Source: a virus. Taken from it: a stretch of 32,808 nucleotides of DNA. The DNA is taken from IMG/VR virus record IMGVR_UViG_3300037458_001154; one strand, 5' to 3'. The notes under the pieces are model-generated. The model was not told where the DNA came from. It was given only the letters and a program-made list of their open reading frames with translations, and searched no databases. Below, one piece after another: positions 8,658-32,808 of this stretch; within the stretch, counting starts at the first letter, position 1; each line of letters starts with the position of its first letter. Position numbers and translations under genes: made by a program.

Positions 8658-10451
8658 CTACCAGAACACATAACCCGTCTCGTTCGCCGAGCCGACCGTG
8701 TTCGTCGTGGCGTTCCCCCAATAACCTCCGGTGTCCTTCTCCGACTGCGACGCCGAGTCATAACTGTCCGTCGCACCGTCGCCCATGATCCGCAGGAACC
8801 GGCCCGAAACGTTCAGGTCGATCGCCCGGTACTTCACCGTCGACGGCGACGAGTCCTCGCGCTCGACGATAAAGAAGGATCGCGCCAGCGGGGACCCCGT
8901 AGCACCCAGGATGTGCCTGGTCGTGATCGACACCGTGTCCCCGATTGCCAGGGACCCGTTTTTCAAGTCGACCTCGAACTCGATCCAGCGGATCCCGTTG
9001 CCCTTCCGGGTCGTCATCCGGCGCGCGATGTTCAGCGCGCGCCCGATCGGGATGGCCGGGTCGAGCAGAGCGTCCGTGATGACCTCGGACCTCTTGTCGC
9101 CGTAGTTACTCGACTGCTCGAGCGACGCGTCGATCACGATGATCCCGCGGGAGTACCGTTCCGTCAGGGTGTTGTTCGCACCGCCGCCGTCCTCGTCGGG
9201 ATCGAACCAGAACGCGACCCGCGTGATCCGGGCGTCCATGTCCTCGACCACGGACACGGAACCCTCGACCAGGTTGTCGTCCGTCAGCGACGCAGTCGAC
9301 GTCGCAGGAGGTCCGATCACGCCGGCACAGAACTTCCCGGCGTCGTCCATGTAAACGATGATGTTCCGCGGCTCGCGCAACCGCGTGATGAGTTCCGTGA
9401 CCCGCATCGGCTTCCGGATGAAGGCCGCGATGTCTGGCGACGACCAGTACCCGTCCCGGACCGCGTCGAAGGTCGCCGTGTTGATGTCGGCCGCGGGGAC
9501 GGACGCCCATTCGAGCAGATCCAGCATCGCGTCCGTGGCCGTGCGCGGGACCGCGGACGTTCCCAGGGCCAGGACGTGTTGAACGGCCTTCCCGGCCTTG
9601 TGCGCCGCGGCCGACGTCCCGAGCTGTCCACGCGTGACAGTCATCGTGTTCGTCGATAACGTGGTCAGCTTCATGACCTCGGCTTCAACCTGGACGTATA
9701 CCGACGACCTGGTGATCGCGGTCGGGTTCGGGAACTGCGATCCGTCCTTCACGTCGAACGACGTCGCGGCCGCGTCGATGTCGGCCTTCAACACGTTGGA
9801 ACTCGAGATCGTCCAGGGCGCGGTCTGCTTCGACAGATCTGCCCAGGCGCTCGCACATTTCATCTGGACCCGCGTCCCGGAGACGGTGATCTGCTTGATC
9901 TTGTACGTCGGTCCGATCTGGACGAAGTCGGACAGGCCGAAGGACGACGTGAAGAAGCCACGCAGGATCCGGACGGGTCGGTTCGCGTAATTCCTGTTCC
10001 GCGCCAGGAGGTTGCGCCAGAACTCGCCCGACGTCCCGCTGTTGTAGCGGCTGGCCCCCTTGTCCGGGTCCGGTGGCAGGGGCCGGTAGTCGAGCAGGAA
10101 CTCGACCGTCACCGCGGCCGGGAAGATGGTCAGCTTGTCCGGGTCGACCGTCTGCGGGATCGGGACGATCCGCGCCAGGTACGGCAGCGCCGGGTTCGCG
10201 TTGTCCGGCCACGGGACATCGTTCAGGCAGAACCTCCAGGTCCGCGTCGTTTTCGTGTACGCGGACGGGTTCTGGCACGTCTGCCAGGTGTAGTAGCAGC
10301 GCGCCCCGTCCCCGAGGTCCGCCGCGACCCCGCAGCCGCCGCCGCCCGACGTCCCGTACAACAGCGAGCAGCGGTCGAGGTCGATCTCGACCAGCCATTG
10401 GACGCGGCGCCCGAACGCGTCGACCTGGGCTGTGTACGCGGCGGTCGGCAT
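8658..10451 (-). CDS. Tail tip / distal tail structural protein (597 aa) with an N-terminal four-Cys cluster
   Basis: It follows the Dit-like gene with an ATGA overlap. The N-terminus carries C28, C40, C52 and C59 (DRCSLLYGTSGGGGCGVAADLGDGARCYYTWQTCQ), reminiscent of lambda gpL / BR0599-type tail tip domains as I recall them. Its size and position fit a Tal/J-like protein. Confidence 0.6.
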   Translation of the reverse strand: MPTAAYTAQVDAFGRRVQWLVEIDLDRCSLLYGTSGGGGCGVAADLGDGARCYYTWQTCQNPSAYTKTTRTWRFCLNDVPWPDNANPALPYLARIVPIPQTVDPDKLTIFPAAVTVEFLLDYRPLPPDPDKGASRYNSGTSGEFWRNLLARNRNYANRPVRILRGFFTSSFGLSDFVQIGPTYKIKQITVSGTRVQMKCASAWADLSKQTAPWTISSSNVLKADIDAAATSFDVKDGSQFPNPTAITRSSVYVQVEAEVMKLTTLSTNTMTVTRGQLGTSAAAHKAGKAVQHVLALGTSAVPRTATDAMLDLLEWASVPAADINTATFDAVRDGYWSSPDIAAFIRKPMRVTELITRLREPRNIIVYMDDAGKFCAGVIGPPATSTASLTDDNLVEGSVSVVEDMDARITRVAFWFDPDEDGGGANNTLTERYSRGIIVIDASLEQSSNYGDKRSEVITDALLDPAIPIGRALNIARRMTTRKGNGIRWIEFEVDLKNGSLAIGDTVSITTRHILGATGSPLARSFFIVEREDSSPSTVKYRAIDLNVSGRFLRIMGDGATDSYDSASQSEKDTGGYWGNATTNTVGSANETGYVFW

Positions 10452-23928: not shown

Positions 23929-24207
23929 TCAGTTCGGGTACTCCGACTTGGGTATGCGAATTCTTCGTTGCAGGGCGATTCGGACGTACTGGTGGACGGG
24001 AATGCGTCGCTTCTGGGCCTCACGCAGGACGTGGGCCTTGAGCTCCTTTCCCAGGTACAGGGACAGGTGGGCCGAGTGGAAGCGGTACCTGATCCAGGCC
24101 GGGTAGCAGCGCCGGCAGACGGCAGCGTTCTCGGCGTTGCGGGGTTCGTTCTGCCGGGGCTTGCCGCAGATCTTGCAGGGGCGCCGTGCTCCGATGTGTC
24201 CACTCAT
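23929..24207 (-). CDS. Zinc-ribbon + ribbon-helix-helix DNA-binding protein
   Basis: Start at MSGHIGARRP (24207). It has CKIC...CRRC followed by an RHH-like HLSLYLGKELKAHVLREAQKRRIPVHQYVRIALQ. The upstream part of ORF 23929..24318 is shadow. Confidence 0.6.
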   Translation of the reverse strand: MSGHIGARRPCKICGKPRQNEPRNAENAAVCRRCYPAWIRYRFHSAHLSLYLGKELKAHVLREAQKRRIPVHQYVRIALQRRIRIPKSEYPN

Positions 24208-25065: not shown

Positions 25066-25290
25066 TCAGTCCAGGTCGTAGGCGTGGGCGTACTTGGCGC
25101 CGGGCCGGCGGCGGGAGGAAGGGACGAGGCGGGATGTGGGGGCGAAGCGCCAGTGGCGGTAGCGGCCGTTGCCGGCGACGCACAGGGCGTGGGTGACGCG
25201 GCCCTTGTGGGCGAGTTTGTAGATCAGGAAGCGCGGGACGCCGAGGATCTGAGCGAGCTCCGTGGCGGAGATTCCGGTCTTCTGGGTCAC
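25066..25290 (-). CDS. Excisionase-family helix-turn-helix DNA-binding protein
   Basis: The GTG at 25288-25290 overlaps the upstream stop (GTGA), with GAAGGAGGA upstream. The HTH is ISATELAQILGVPRFLIYKLAHKGRV. Confidence 0.6.
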   Translation of the reverse strand: MTQKTGISATELAQILGVPRFLIYKLAHKGRVTHALCVAGNGRYRHWRFAPTSRLVPSSRRRPGAKYAHAYDLD

Positions 25291-25643
25291 GGTGTTCCTC
25301 CTTCGATTTTCCCTTTCGTGATGCGGATCGTGGTCTTGATTGCGTGCGTTCCGGAGCCAGACGAGAGCAACGCCAGCAAGTCGTCGGCCCGGACCAGCAC
25401 CAGCCACGGCCCGCGGTCCTTGCGGACGAACACGCCGCGGACTTCGTCGGCGGTCTGCATCCAACTCGGAAGCGAGGCGCGGCGCTTGACTTCCCAGTTT
25501 CCGACCGTCGTCTCGACGTCGCCCTGGTCGCCGCCGTACTCGGGCTGTTCGTATCTCAGGGAGCCGTCGAAGCCGCGTTCTGTGAAGAGTGCGAGGACTT
25601 CGAGCTCGCCGCGTCGGCCCTTGTCGCGCTGGGACTTGCTCAC
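25287..25643 (-). CDS. PD-(D/E)XK nuclease, Hjc-like Holliday junction resolvase (tentative)
   Basis: 118 aa. KGRRGELEVLALFTERGF ... GDVETTVGNWEVKRR fits an E...D...E-x-K arrangement. Confidence 0.55.
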   Translation of the reverse strand: MSKSQRDKGRRGELEVLALFTERGFDGSLRYEQPEYGGDQGDVETTVGNWEVKRRASLPSWMQTADEVRGVFVRKDRGPWLVLVRADDLLALLSSGSGTHAIKTTIRITKGKIEGGTP

Positions 25644-25924
25644 CGCCCCTCCCGCGCGATCTGGATGAGAGCGCCTTCTGCCGCAACATGGTCGGCCTCA
25701 AGGTCGTAGTCCTGCGGGTTCGCGGCCGCCGCCTTGCCCGTCTCGTCCCACCGCACGATCACCGCCCGCAGCCGCTCGCACTCGTTTGCCCACTTCTGTG
25801 CTTCGGCTTCCTTGGCGAAGATCGTGGCGCGGTGTTCGTTCAGTTGCTCGCACAGCCGCTCGATCTCGGCCCCGACCTCGTCGGCGTTGTAGACCTTTGC
25901 GGAACCAAGCCAGTACGCCTTCAC
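25640..25924 (-). CDS. Small hypothetical protein (94 aa) ending in REGR
   Basis: The GTG at 25922-25924 lies in a GTGA junction. Product begins VKAYWLGSAKVYNADEVGAEIERLCEQLNEHRAT and ends IQIAREGR. Confidence 0.55.
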   Translation of the reverse strand: MKAYWLGSAKVYNADEVGAEIERLCEQLNEHRATIFAKEAEAQKWANECERLRAVIVRWDETGKAAAANPQDYDLEADHVAAEGALIQIAREGR

Positions 25925-26055
25925 CGCCCCTCCCGCGTCACACGAATCATCCGCTCCTGCTTGTTCGGCCAGCGCCCCACCGCCAGAGCCAACACCCACG
26001 GGACGAGCGGGCCGAGAGGGATGTTCCAGACGAGCCACATCACAAGTCGTCTCAC
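25921..26055 (-). CDS. Small membrane protein (44 aa) ending in REGR, not in the ORF track
   Basis: The GTG at 26053-26055 lies in a GTGA junction. Product: VRRLVMWLVWNIPLGPLVPWVLALAVGRWPNKQERMIRVTREGR, with one TM helix. Confidence 0.5.
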   Translation of the reverse strand: MRRLVMWLVWNIPLGPLVPWVLALAVGRWPNKQERMIRVTREGR

Positions 26056-26303
26056 CTCCCCTCCCGCGCGATCCGATCAGCCCAAGCCTTTGCCATTTCC
26101 TCTTCGATGAATCCAACAGACATTGTTCCGTGGCTTATCTCCGCGATTGTCTTGATGAGACTTCCCCTCTCGTAATGGAGCTTCTTGTTCTCCTCCCGGA
26201 GCCGCTCGATCTCGGCCTTCCCCTTCTTGCAGCAGTCGCATTGACACCCATCCGCGAACACCTGTGCCAAGAACCCGACCGGAAGATCGCTGCTACTGGT
26301 CAC
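26052..26303 (-). CDS. Small hypothetical protein (83 aa, CQCDCC motif) ending in REGR
   Basis: GTG start in a GTGA junction. It has a Cys cluster followed by a coiled-coil (KGKAEIERLREENKKL). Confidence 0.6.
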   Translation of the reverse strand: MTSSSDLPVGFLAQVFADGCQCDCCKKGKAEIERLREENKKLHYERGSLIKTIAEISHGTMSVGFIEEEMAKAWADRIAREGR

Positions 26304-26476
26304 CGCCCCTCCCGCTTCACGGCACTCTCCGCGATCTCCTCCGCGTCGAACTTGTCGAGCGGCTGGTAGTATTCAATGGCATCCTGAGCCGCGTCCCATG
26401 CGTCGTCATAGTTTCGTCCGCTGCGCCATGCATCGAAGGCGGCGTCAGCGACGGCCTTGCGTTCGTAGTCCCTCAC
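26300..26476 (-). CDS. Small acidic hypothetical protein (58 aa) ending in REGR
   Basis: The GTG at 26474-26476 lies in a GTGA junction. Product begins VRDYERKAVADAAFDAWRSGRNYDDAWDAAQDAIEYYQPL. The remainder of ORF 26300..26995 is shadow. Confidence 0.55.
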   Translation of the reverse strand: MRDYERKAVADAAFDAWRSGRNYDDAWDAAQDAIEYYQPLDKFDAEEIAESAVKREGR

Positions 26477-26853
26477 CGCCCCTCCCGCTTCTTGAACCAT
26501 GGGTCGATGCGAAGGGACTCGACCTCCTCGGACGCGATCTGCTTGAGCTTCTCCAGAGCGTCCGTGTTGCGGAGCTCCTCCCGACTCGTCTCCCCATAGA
26601 CCCGCTTCTTTTTCCGAAGTGCTGCGTGAGCGGATACGAACTCGCAGATCGCTTCTTTCATCCTGCTCGCCTCTGACGCCCAATAGCTCCGCTGTGAGAC
26701 AAGCTGGGCAATCTGTCGGTCGCGGTCGGCAATCAGCTCGTTCTTCTCGGCGCAGCACTGGGCCAGCTTCTTCGCGCAGTCCTGGGCCGAGTCGATCAGC
26801 TCGGCGGCGTCGGGGTTGATCGGGGTCAGGTCGCCGGTGCGGAAGGGCTTCAT
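26473..26853 (-). CDS. Hypothetical coiled-coil protein (126 aa) ending in REGR
   Basis: The ATG overlaps the upstream stop (ATGA). The composition is helical and Lys/Glu-rich. Confidence 0.65.
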   Translation of the reverse strand: MKPFRTGDLTPINPDAAELIDSAQDCAKKLAQCCAEKNELIADRDRQIAQLVSQRSYWASEASRMKEAICEFVSAHAALRKKKRVYGETSREELRNTDALEKLKQIASEEVESLRIDPWFKKREGR

Positions 26854-27488
26854 GCAGCCTCCGAGATGTCAGGGATGAGCAGGCGCACGTTTCCCGCCAT
26901 GAGTGCGCACCAAGGAACGACGATGAAGTAGGTCCCGTCGTGCGTTCGATCAACGTAGGGTCTGTCCATTCGGCGTTTCTGCTTTCGGCACTCAAAAGGG
27001 CCGAATCTCGCCGTGAAGTTGACTAGGTCGACCGTCCGGACGACAGCAACAGACAATAACTTCTCGTGCGTGCGGTCGACGTAGGCCTGGACGGTGAGAT
27101 GAGGGAATAGGTACCCAAGGTCAGGCCTGGTAACAGCCAGCTCTCTTTTCTCCCACTCCGTCGTGTTGCCGCTTTCTCGACGAAGGCGGAGCGTAAAGGT
27201 CTCCCAGGAGATCCCGTCGCATTGGACTCTGCTGGCGACCCCTCGGACGGCCATACCTTGGCGAACGACCTGGTAGGCGTCGATCCCGCAAAGCTCGTCC
27301 ATGCGAGCTAGGGCCGATGCAGCCTCCCTGACAATCCCAGGGGCGCACTGCCCAAGCGCCACCTTCAGCTCCTTGCTTTCAACCGACACGATCTCTCCGC
27401 CACCGATCAACGGCCCGACCACCGGCCAGACAAGCCGGTGAAAGTCGTCGCGCGAGGCGTCGAGGTCGCGCCGAACGTCAGCTTTCAA
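26850..27488 (-). CDS. Hypothetical protein (212 aa), lower-GC gene
   Basis: Long ORF with non-shadow composition. It has a TTG start (uncertain) overlapping the methyltransferase end. Local G+C is about 55 percent in sampled 26941-27060, versus clearly higher in flanking genes. Confidence 0.55.
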   Translation of the reverse strand: MKADVRRDLDASRDDFHRLVWPVVGPLIGGGEIVSVESKELKVALGQCAPGIVREAASALARMDELCGIDAYQVVRQGMAVRGVASRVQCDGISWETFTLRLRRESGNTTEWEKRELAVTRPDLGYLFPHLTVQAYVDRTHEKLLSVAVVRTVDLVNFTARFGPFECRKQKRRMDRPYVDRTHDGTYFIVVPWCALMAGNVRLLIPDISEAA

Positions 27489-28722
27489 TGGAGCATCCGC
27501 GCTTGGTAGCGATCTTCACCATCTCCTCATTGACCTCGAAACCGATCGCTTGGCGCCCAAGCTCGGCAGCCTTGAGGACGAACGTCCCCGTGCCGGCGAA
27601 CGGGTCGAGCACGAAGTCGCCAGGCTTGCTCGCGTGCCGCACGAAGCGGTCGGCGAGATCGTCCGGCTTCTGCCAGGCGTGGTATCGGCCACCGAGCCGG
27701 CCGTCGGGGGCGTTGATGTCGTGGACGCTGAACTGCTCAGTCATCACCGGGCAGTCGAGCGGCGGCGCGTCCTCTCCTCGGAGGTAGAGGATGGCCTGCC
27801 AATTTGTCTTATACTGGTCGCTTGGGGCCGGTCCAAGCGTGTTGCGGTAGGTCCAGACGAGGACCTGCGTCCGGTCGATCCAGCCCGCTCGACGCACCGT
27901 ATCGAGGTATGCCAACAGCTCGACCGGGTACGATCCGATGCAGACGTACCCCTGCCCTGTCGGCTTGAGTTTCTGGACCGCGCACTCCAGCCAGCGGGAG
28001 AACTCACCGATGTTCGGTACGTCCGTCGAGTAGGGCGGGTCCGTGAGCAGCAGGTCGACCGACTCATCCGCGACAGAGTCGAGCAGGTCCCAAACCGTGC
28101 CGCGCTTGATGACACCGCGATCCGGGTCCTGCTGGCGCTGCGCCTCGACCTTCTGCTGAGCCTCACGGCGCTTCATCTCGCGAAAGGCGCCGTCCACCTT
28201 GCCCGTCTCGTCCATCTGATCGACCAGATCTCCGAACAGATCGGGGTCTGTGTCGGCAGCCTTGATGACCTCACGCGCCTTCTCGATCGTCTTGAAGCTC
28301 TTGCCCGTGGCCTTCGCGGCCTTCGCGCGGGACTCGCCGGCATCCAGCTCCGAAAACTTTTCGGGGCTAGCGTGCGCCGCGATCATCCGCTCCCGGGCCA
28401 GCCGCTCCTCCTCCTCGCGCACGGCGTCGGCGATCTCCACCGCCTCCGTCGGCGCGAAGTCCTTGCGGCAGACGTTCTCGTCGCGTTCGCCCTTGGCGAT
28501 GGCCTCGATGTCGATGACGTTGACCGGAACGTGCGTTCGTCCGAGCTTGCGAAACGCCGCGATGCGGCGCTCTCCGGCGATCAGCGTGCCGTCCTTGTTG
28601 ACCACGACGGGGTGCAGCAAGCCGATCGCCTCGATGCTCGCTGCAAGATTGTCGATGTCGCCCAGCACCTTGCGATGCCGCTGTCCTGGCTTGATGCGGT
28701 CGATCGGCCATTCAGTTGCCAC
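27478..28722 (-). CDS. ParB-like nuclease domain fused to an N6-adenine/N4-cytosine DNA methyltransferase
   Basis: GTG start after AGGGAG. The N-terminal ParB box is GLLHPVVVNKDGTLIAGERR. The methyltransferase has motif IV DPPY (LLLTDPPYS) upstream of motif I FAGTGT (VLDPFAGTGT), which is the beta-class order. Confidence 0.85.
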   Translation of the reverse strand: MATEWPIDRIKPGQRHRKVLGDIDNLAASIEAIGLLHPVVVNKDGTLIAGERRIAAFRKLGRTHVPVNVIDIEAIAKGERDENVCRKDFAPTEAVEIADAVREEEERLARERMIAAHASPEKFSELDAGESRAKAAKATGKSFKTIEKAREVIKAADTDPDLFGDLVDQMDETGKVDGAFREMKRREAQQKVEAQRQQDPDRGVIKRGTVWDLLDSVADESVDLLLTDPPYSTDVPNIGEFSRWLECAVQKLKPTGQGYVCIGSYPVELLAYLDTVRRAGWIDRTQVLVWTYRNTLGPAPSDQYKTNWQAILYLRGEDAPPLDCPVMTEQFSVHDINAPDGRLGGRYHAWQKPDDLADRFVRHASKPGDFVLDPFAGTGTFVLKAAELGRQAIGFEVNEEMVKIATKRGCSIES

Positions 28723-28750
28723 GTCGGATCTCCCTGATTGACATGAGAAA

Positions 28751-31783: not shown

Positions 31784-31812
31784 AATCTACGCGTTGACAT
31801 TGACAATGTCAA
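31784..31812 (-). promoter_or_regulatory. Early promoter candidate: TTGACA-N17-TAGATT
   Basis: The minus strand reads CCATTGACA TTGTCAATGTCAACGCG TAGATT CTCCTCT GTG. The -35 box is at 31807-31812 and the -10 box at 31784-31789. Confidence 0.6.
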
Positions 31813-32499: not shown

Positions 32500-32738
32500 G
32501 CGTGGAGACGGTCCGCGGCTGCCCGTTCTGCCACAGGAGTCTCCGCGGGAGCGACCTGCACTGCCGGCAGTGCGAGGGCGACGTGGACCTCCGGCACGAG
32601 GACCACCGCTACCGGGAAGCCGAGGCCGACTTCCTCGTCGCCCAGCGCCGCGACGTGCGGCTCTGCGCGGAGCGCCACGGGCTGACGCTCGACGAGTTCC
32701 GACGGTTCCTGATCGACCGCGGGATCCTGACGCCGTGA
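32496..32738 (+). CDS. Zinc-ribbon protein (80 aa) upstream of int
   Basis: CPFC...CRQC followed by a helical C-terminal part (GLTLDEFRRFLIDRGIL). It is GTGA-coupled on both sides, to the membrane peptide and (across the circle junction) to int. Confidence 0.6.
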   Translation: MSVETVRGCPFCHRSLRGSDLHCRQCEGDVDLRHEDHRYREAEADFLVAQRRDVRLCAERHGLTLDEFRRFLIDRGILTP

Positions 32739-32808
32739 CCCGGGGCGACGGCAGCCTGACCCACGACGGCCGGACCTGGCGGGCCCAGGTCTGGGTCGGA
32801 GGGGACCG
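32682..32808. repeat. Terminal exact direct repeat, copy 2
   Basis: Identical to 1-127. Joining the ends gives GTGA coupling between the zinc-ribbon ORF stop and the int GTG start. Confidence 0.9.

Follow-up and report, generated by a model that had tools for sequence, protein, structure and literature searches.

Six consecutive early genes on the minus strand of IMG/VR virus record IMGVR_UViG_3300037458_001154, a stretch of 32,808 nucleotides (nt) that is referred to here in its entirety as the window, are joined by five copies of the same 15-nt sequence. The repeat is real, non-random, and distinct from the junction that is generic to this genome. We consider it probable, from comparisons of the window with its relatives at the sequence level, that the 15-mer is at once a translational-coupling junction and the C-terminal end that is conserved in a mosaic family of paralogous small early proteins. 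It illustrates neatly a form of phage mosaicism that is already known, and does not constitute a new class of genetic element.

The repeat reads CGGGAGGGG[C/A]GGTGA on the minus strand, and each of the five copies (J1 to J5) is positioned at a gene boundary, with start-to-start spacings of 173, 248, 131 and 281 nt. Every copy comprises the last codons of the upstream open reading frame (ORF), CGG GAG GGG C/AGG, encoding R-E-G-R, together with its TGA termination codon. The same bases contain the GGGAGGGG Shine-Dalgarno (SD) sequence of the following gene, whose GTG start codon overlaps the stop as GTGA at 5/5 junctions; the run GGGAGG(GG) ends 4 nt before the GTG (2 nt if the whole G run is counted) and lies inside the upstream ORF. 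The chain begins with A126 and continues through A58, A83, A44 and A94 (126, 58, 83, 44 and 94 residues, respectively) to a 118-residue resolvase-like gene (Table 1). This is the organization described in the initial annotation, which had been made from the letters alone, and ORF mapping bears it out: all five copies are located. With up to two mismatches allowed there are 6 matches in the window against 0.61 expected from dinucleotide-preserving shuffles, 0/100 of which reached 6. The sixth match, CGGGCGGGGCGGTGA at 6998-7012 on the minus strand, has one mismatch, lies inside a structural-region ORF out of the stop/start register, and is probably a chance occurrence. The two flank subtypes that had been distinguished (KREGR and IAREGR) are also present, with J1 and J2 identical over 19 nt (GAAGCGGGAGGGGCGGTGA) and J3 and J5 matching at 22/23 nt (GATCGCGCGGGAGGGGMGGTGAG). 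Alignment of the flanks shows that conservation is limited to 16-23 nt and reaches into the upstream gene only.

Table 1. Positions of the five junctions, the genes that they join, and other features of the window.
Feature	Coordinates	Strand	Remarks
J1, CGGGAGGGGCGGTGA	26473..26487	-	End of A126 (…FKKREGR, stop) / GGGAGGGG SD / overlapping GTG of A58
J2	26300..26314	-	End of A58 (…AVKREGR, stop) / GTG of A83
J3, CGGGAGGGGAGGTGA	26052..26066	-	GGGGAGG variant with synonymous AGG Arg codon; end of A83 (…RIAREGR, stop) / GTG of A44
J4	25921..25935	-	End of A44 (…RVTREGR, stop) / GTG of A94
J5	25640..25654	-	End of A94 (…QIAREGR, stop) / GTG of resolvase-like gene
A126	26473..26853	-	Family member; family HMM E = 5e-8; N-terminal module MKPFRTGDLTPI.PDAAELIDSAQD…CCA
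A58	26300..26476	-	KREGR linker; not detected as family member
A83	26052..26303	-	Family member; MTSSxDLPxGFL…GCQC N-terminal module, AEIERLRE, IAREGR
A44	25921..26055	-	Predicted single-pass membrane peptide, 44 residues, ends TREGR; not detected as family member
A94	25640..25924	-	Family member; homologues P0006-P0008; family HMM
Holliday-junction resolvase-like gene	25287..25643	-	118 residues, sixth in chain; starts at the J5 GTG; PHROG 244, E = 1.6e-13
AEIERL patch in A83, GCCGAGATCGAGCGGCT	26200..26216	-	Second microhomology patch of the family; 100% identical to L160 5005-5021
AEIERL patch in A94	25853..25870	-	
p212	26850..27488	-	Gene upstream of the array; joined to A126 via a different junction, GGAGGCTGCATGA
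Promoter-like site (TTGACA, 17 nt, TAGATT)	31784..31812	-	Head of the early block that holds the array
Tyrosine integrase	54-1142	+	

Junctions elsewhere in the genome have GGAGG placed 4-5 nt before an ATG or GTG that often overlaps a TGA, but they differ in their spacer and flank bases, and the claim that the 15-mer is not the generic junction is therefore upheld. Because the other junctions share the architecture and not the bases, the five copies agree at approximately 6-7 positions beyond the generic need, and 27/28 comparisons match at these free positions. The peptide ending is to some extent set by the SD itself. When GGGAGG is four bases before an RTGA overlap (R denoting a purine) the upstream frame reads xGG GAG Gxx xxR TGA, a register that forces Glu, preceded by Arg, Gly or Trp and followed by Gly, Glu, Asp, Ala or Val. 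Since the SD position fixes the frame, an 'REG' ending is partly an automatic by-product, and other genes of the phage end in -EEAP, -EEVA and -EAA because the same register applies. The codons are a different matter: their usage in the genome is 0.32 for CGG, 0.80 for GAG and 0.26 for GGG, and given this usage the identical codons in the five REGR tails are not expected from selection on the peptide alone.

The exact 15-mer is found in 68 IMG/VR contigs, all of them with a single copy and representing unrelated high-GC phages. In 23/68 of these it separates two ORFs, each 40 codons or longer, in the REGR-stop/GTG register, compared with a background of 16.5% when every RTGA tetramer of the 68 contigs is counted (p = 4e-4). 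High-GC junctions thus arrive repeatedly at this 15-mer as one of several good solutions. Its recurrence places it among the generic SD/stop/start sequences and speaks against the initial interpretation, but leaves the run of five identical copies unexplained. The shorter 14-mer ATCGCGCGGGAGGG has mostly chance occurrences in IMG/VR among the matches listed, with one possible small array in L202. At the junctions themselves RNA folding is no more stable than that of shuffled sequence (z = 0.1 to 2.1) and there is no common fold; no inverted repeat is present at or around them, no promoter-like or minus-strand terminator-like site is located there, and Rfam has no match in the window.

Comparison of the predicted products places A126, A83 and A94 in a single family of small, helical phage proteins that has not been described before; its hallmarks are an E(I/V)ARLREAI motif at mid-gene and a C-terminus of the form (E)IAREG[R/K/E]. 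The genes between the junctions had been thought unrelated, and searches with A126 and A94 together with a family hidden Markov model (HMM) overturn this for these three. A single-sequence search with A126 identified P0002 and P0003, which share its first approximately 35 residues, followed by DAEIERL, and end in FKKREGR and EIAREGR. An exhaustive search with A94 identified P0006-P0008, which end in IAREG[RK] and among which P0007 has an A126-type N-terminus joined to an A94-type core. Profile searching added about 20 further proteins of 49-96 residues, all metagenomic, with E[IV]ARLREAI and L-x-E-I-A-R-E-G-[RK]; the family is found only in metagenomic phage contigs. The HMM matches A83 at 5.5e-17, A94 at 1.1e-15 and A126 at 5e-8, where A83 and A94 are in the seed alignment and the A126 score is partly circular, as the seed includes P0002 and P0003 with their A126-type N-terminus. 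Nothing significant is found in Pfam or PHROGs for the five array genes or the family, species-representative genomes have no match by terminase or family profile, and a literature search on the peptide motifs found nothing relevant.

All five small ORFs have a coding-type GC periodicity like that of the rest of the genome (GC3 0.71-0.83 and GC2 0.43-0.49, at third and second codon positions), and they have the sizes noted earlier, of 44-126 residues. One product had been called membrane-embedded; that of A44 contains a single hydrophobic stretch (Kyte-Doolittle 19-residue maximum 1.76) and is predicted to be a single-pass membrane peptide. An AlphaFold2 model of A94 has two long helices (residues 14-68 and 73-93; mean predicted local distance difference test score, pLDDT, 91.6), and a Foldseek comparison of this model with viral structures gave non-significant helical matches only. 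Many family members (P0015, P0018, P0021, P0022, P0023, P0026 and genes of L165) have CxCxxC directly before IAREG; these Cys-rich members also have a pair of Cys close to the N-terminus, spaced as CxxC or CxC, and A83 has an N-terminal Cys cluster only. The arrangement of these motifs suggests a zinc-binding subtype.

Tandem arrays of genes ending in IAREGx are present at the equivalent early position in at least seven related phages (L165, L166/L167, L286, L287, L293 and L163). The core ATC GCG CGG GAG GGx xxR TGA is conserved, synonymous sites included, across 21 junctions in seven contigs, with the Ala codon being GCG in 19/20 and the Arg codon CGG in 19/20; the mid-gene motif, unlike the junction, mostly has GCC for Ala. 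Last codon and next start codon covary in these relatives (CGA-TGA with ATG, AAG-TGA with GTG; GAG-TGA is also seen). Only the window and L160 have GGG CGG TGA throughout, and L293 has CGGGAGGGACGATGA twice in succession; as the window/L160 and L293 forms differ, each lineage tends to have its own homogenised variant. Small genes of other families, in arrays that include those of L163, L286 and L287, carry different SD-bearing endings, such as …KEEK and …ADALEGE. We note that the …KEEK ending corresponds to AAGGAGGAGAAGTGA, that three phages have CTGGAGGGGGAGTGA (…ADALEGE) on orthologues of one gene ('VTDREA…'), and that CGGGAGGAGAAGTGA (…REEK) occurs twice in L163, at 8687-8701 and 8983-8997. 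A distant phage found through its resolvase, L074, has three copies of GCTGACAATGG (7876, 8144 and 8587) downstream of the resolvase, and these may be another reused stop/start junction.

Attempts to find relatives by other routes were less productive. BLASTN of the region against GenBank phages gave no match; relatives identified via the resolvase (28-41% identity) have no comparable arrays; and the large terminase, used as query against IMG/VR, metagenomes and genomes, has its nearest relative at 54% identity, with neither the linker nor homologues of the array genes. The conserved N-terminal DNA pattern also has no match in IMG/VR.

Where arrays are present they are mosaic. At least six different C-terminal halves are found behind the A126-type N-terminal module, and three behind the A83-type module, which is also present in P0017, P0018 and L165 909-1013; conversely, the C-terminal half …AWAELEYMD.AHDPDRWERYLRAGTRLVEIAREG. 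is found on three different N-terminal halves and another on two. Gene order is unlike between the window, L165 and L287, and the prediction that the content between conserved junctions would differ among relatives holds for gene number, identity and order. The mosaic joints appear to coincide with the patches in a small sample of arrays. Tandem duplication followed by simple divergence was considered as the sole cause of the array and rejected, the DNA similarity of the gene bodies being confined to two patches and the junction being identical even at free positions.

The most informative case is L160, a phage with a different head module that is 99% identical to window 29282-26739. Similarity to A126 ends at the AEIERL patch, and L160 has a single family gene before its resolvase. 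The junction at the end of this gene is a hybrid: L160 5143-5167 is 100% identical to the left-flank 25 nt of J1, TTCAAGAAGCGGGAGGGGCGGTGAG, L160 5151-5189 is 100% identical to window 25655-25617 (the right-hand 39 nt at J5), and the two stretches overlap in GCGGGAGGGGCGGTGAG within the one junction. This is the product that would be expected of a crossover inside the linker, with the four intervening genes deleted or inserted.

The explanation that we favour, and regard as probable, begins with the last codons (…ATC GCG CGG GAG GGG CGG), which set the strong GGGAGGGG SD four bases before the TGA-overlapping GTG, such that a ribosome ending one small gene could begin again on its neighbour along a single long early transcript. 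Of the five genes, three or more are paralogues that inherited this ending, giving near-identical copies, and the junction and the AEI(A/E)RL patch are the only stretches kept alike in their DNA. Recombination, among paralogues as well as among co-circulating phages, could resolve at both patches, and exchange of this kind would reshuffle half-genes and whole genes while keeping the patches homogeneous within a lineage. The layout of the junctions, the membership of the family, the mosaicism and the hybrid junction of L160 are read directly from the sequences, and both the coupling and the role of recombination as the homogenising force are what we infer from the arrangement. Since A126, A83 and A94 share a mosaic family, the linker is likely to be mainly the homologous 3' end of paralogues and not a free-standing element; the suggestion of a modular array with a reusable linker is to that extent revised, and the parts of it that stand are the mosaicism of the relatives and the L160 junction expected of exchange within the linker.

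Several observations sit uneasily with this explanation. Paralogy alone does not seem to explain all five copies, as A58 and A44 have no family HMM match at E <= 1e-3, retrieve only near-identical copies with phmmer, and share only their last 4-5 residues with the family; the two may be family members that have degenerated, or genuinely foreign to it. Relatives are absent from the isolate and species-representative genomes searched. The L160 junction could be either ancestral, with the window having gained four genes, or derived by deletion, and more than one event appears to have been involved since the middle of the L160 gene differs from A126. A within-population variant, L070 (GCA_025490995.1), has a 101-nt deletion that removes J1 (window ~26410-26510; variant locus 2331-2344), leaving A126 fused out of frame and A58 truncated. 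This deletion occurred at 2-4 nt of microhomology and not linker-to-linker, and is the only polymorphism seen in the near-identical population; the proposal that the linker is a site of exchange fits the hybrid J1/J5 junction of L160 but not the L070 deletion. Finally, the last and start codons vary in the relatives, and we infer that the perfect identity at free positions in the window and L160 needs an extra cause, such as recent exchange, conversion or lineage-specific selection.

The favoured explanation has some broader use. It provides a sequence-resolved case of mosaicism in which one short stretch serves as C-terminus, ribosome-binding site and stop/start overlap and coincides with mosaic joints, and it defines an unannotated helical family with module shuffling, on which rates of recombination at microhomology patches could be studied. 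A stronger version, which we put forward only tentatively and with the balance against it, is that two patches, one at the junction (…ATCGCGCGGGAGGG…TGA) and one at mid-gene (AEI(A/E)RL), form a built-in combinatorial shuffling system in which the DNA is kept constant as crossover points. Temperate phages would then continually make new combinations of half-genes and whole genes, with the micro-ORFs A44 and A58 joining via the linker, and the combinations of small early proteins would plausibly be under arms-race selection.

We are doubtful that the conservation is instead imposed by the protein, with (E)IAREGR being needed as the end of a coiled-coil interface helix or as a tail for a partner or protease, and the SD and start overlap incidental. 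Homologues that are 25-55% identical retain the motif, which reaches further upstream than the SD (L-x-E-I-A), it sits at the end of a confidently predicted helix, and some synonymous variants are found in L166 (ATT, AGG and GGA), all of which such a requirement would accommodate. However, the GCG and CGG codons are far more uniform than usage predicts, the last residue varies (R, K or E) while the purine for the next start codon is kept, and A58, A44 and A126 retain only REGR, the part that bears the SD. The enrichment of the same 15-mer at junctions of unrelated genes in other phages also argues against a protein motif.

An autonomous boundary element, carried on unrelated genes and serving mainly for cassette exchange, is closest to what was first envisaged, and we now think it unlikely. 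It would account for the identical linker on A58 and A44 outside the family, for the L160 hybrid junction, for the variation in cassette order and number among relatives, and for the conservation of synonymous sites at the junction. Yet 3/5 genes and nearly all of the motif-bearing relatives are homologous to each other, and conservation is asymmetric, extending into the upstream gene only and reaching into its C-terminal helix (L.EIAREG). The junctions have neither inverted repeats nor structure, the sequence is not multi-copy in IMG/VR among the matches listed, and other families in the same arrays keep their own endings (KEEK and ADALEGE).

It is very improbable that each junction separately reached an optimal reinitiation signal for the host, in the absence of shared ancestry or exchange: the 15-mer does arise at junctions of unrelated phages and the SD register accounts for R-E-G, but the other junctions of this genome did not converge, the flank identities (19 nt and 22/23 nt) exceed any SD requirement, family homology is demonstrated, and ~27/28 extra position-matches have a negligible probability by chance. 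Equally remote is a role as a binding site for a phage or host factor, or as a -1 slip site on GAGGGG that fuses neighbouring products, for although the copies have a single orientation at gene ends, and GGG is the same in the 0 and -1 frames within GAGGGG with -1 being the frame of the next gene, they are confined to 1.2 kb and not genome-wide, the G run is often interrupted in relatives, by GGA CGA, and there is neither a stimulatory RNA structure at the junctions nor an Rfam match. The stoperators of L5-like phages are asymmetric sites, many in number and scattered across the genome, to which the repressor binds. No stoperator-like dispersal is seen here, the five copies lying within 1.2 kb and the only near-copy (6998-7012) being inside a gene.

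The setting of the array is a phage genome of 67% GC. The terminal 127 nt at 1-127 and 32682-32808 are an exact direct repeat (assembler overlap), and because both ends are identical the window is a closed, circular assembly, representing a temperate phage with a genome of ~32.7 kb. Related contigs are circular permutations of the window, and copies that are 99.8-100% identical to it are found in three GenBank metagenome-assembled genomes and one Joint Genome Institute (JGI) metagenome. Genes recognised in the window code for a helix-turn-helix (HTH) protein, an AAA_24 protein, a fusion of ParB and methyltransferase, the resolvase-like product, a replication initiator, a terminase, and Mu-like portal, protease and capsid proteins. 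No minus-strand terminator-like site lies between the promoter-like site at the head of the minus-strand early block and 23500. The AAA_24 family includes the Sak4-type single-strand annealing recombinases.

Among other features of this region, p212 contains a 22-nt direct repeat (26938-26959 and 27064-27085, 86% identical) and a 21-nt inverted repeat (27023-27043 / 27064-27084, 81% complementary), and it has no match in IMG/VR. A variant locus in a near-identical assembly, L072, is without ~86 nt (window 28653-28738) at the 5' end of the ParB-methyltransferase gene, and the product called for this gene has 380 residues and no ParB_N domain. The resolvase alleles of the window (25287-25643) and L160 (5163-5534) have identical 5' ends (~27 nt), 3' ends that are 92% identical (64 nt) and strongly diverged middles, the same pattern of conserved ends and a replaced middle as in the array genes.

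The junctions have much in common with coupled AUGA/GUGA junctions in general, in the overlap of TGA and GTG, in having GGGAGGGG 4 nt upstream inside the last codons, and in belonging to a co-directional block with no internal terminator-like site. They differ in that the same 15 nt is reused at five consecutive junctions and forms part of a conserved protein C-terminus. Lambdoid phages have boundary or linker sequences, which are short conserved sequences at gene junctions whose flanking genes differ between phages. The likeness lies in the short shared boundary sequence, the differing flanking genes and the coincident mosaic joints; the differences are that the present phage is of another group (with Mu-like head genes), and that it has five tandem copies associated with one protein family. 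Boundary mosaicism of the lambdoid type is found in the small sample formed by L160, L165, L286, L287, L293 and L163. Boundaries of the lambdoid kind go together with homeologous recombination by phage recombinases. The HK620 and HK97 papers are cited in PMC2327257.

The initial annotation knew of no described element of this type, but precedents exist in the lambdoid boundary sequences, in the promoter-early stem-loop cassettes (PeSLs) of T4-type phages (PMC2839356) and in the Start-Associated Sequences (SAS) of Cluster K mycobacteriophages (PMC3203893). The PeSLs are short conserved motifs, each composed of an intergenic early promoter and a stem-loop terminator, that flank small non-essential early ORFs in plastic regions, and recombination at them rearranges, adds and removes ORFs (Arbiol et al. 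2010, PMC2839356; PMC4122927). The present motif likewise borders small early ORFs, which would be shuffled by recombination between motifs. The present motif, unlike a PeSL, is coding and contains an SD, is without promoter, stem-loop or stable structure, and is inherited within a paralogous family; the sigma-70-like promoter and terminator stem-loop that define a PeSL repeat are absent from the five junctions. Integron attC sites, with a foldable imperfect inverted repeat at the 3' end of the cassette, also provide no match, as the junctions have no inverted repeat or stable fold.

The SAS repeats have the 13 bp consensus GGGATAGGAGCCC and are situated 3-7 bp before start codons, with 11-19 copies over half a genome preceding genes of many phamilies (Pope et al. 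2011, PMC3203893). Like the 15-mer, they are asymmetric repeats of ~13-15 nt with an SD core, a few nt before the starts of non-structural genes and in one orientation; the upstream stop codon is sometimes included, and conservation goes beyond the need for SD pairing. The differences are that here the five copies are within 1.2 kb and the conservation is in the coding end of the upstream gene. The window has one 2-mismatch match to the SAS consensus, at 24040-24052, which equals the chance expectation. The 15-mer belongs to neither of the sequence-defined families, PeSL or SAS; by analogy, it would work like the lambdoid boundary sequences and the T4-type PeSLs, and its position resembles that of the Cluster K SAS.

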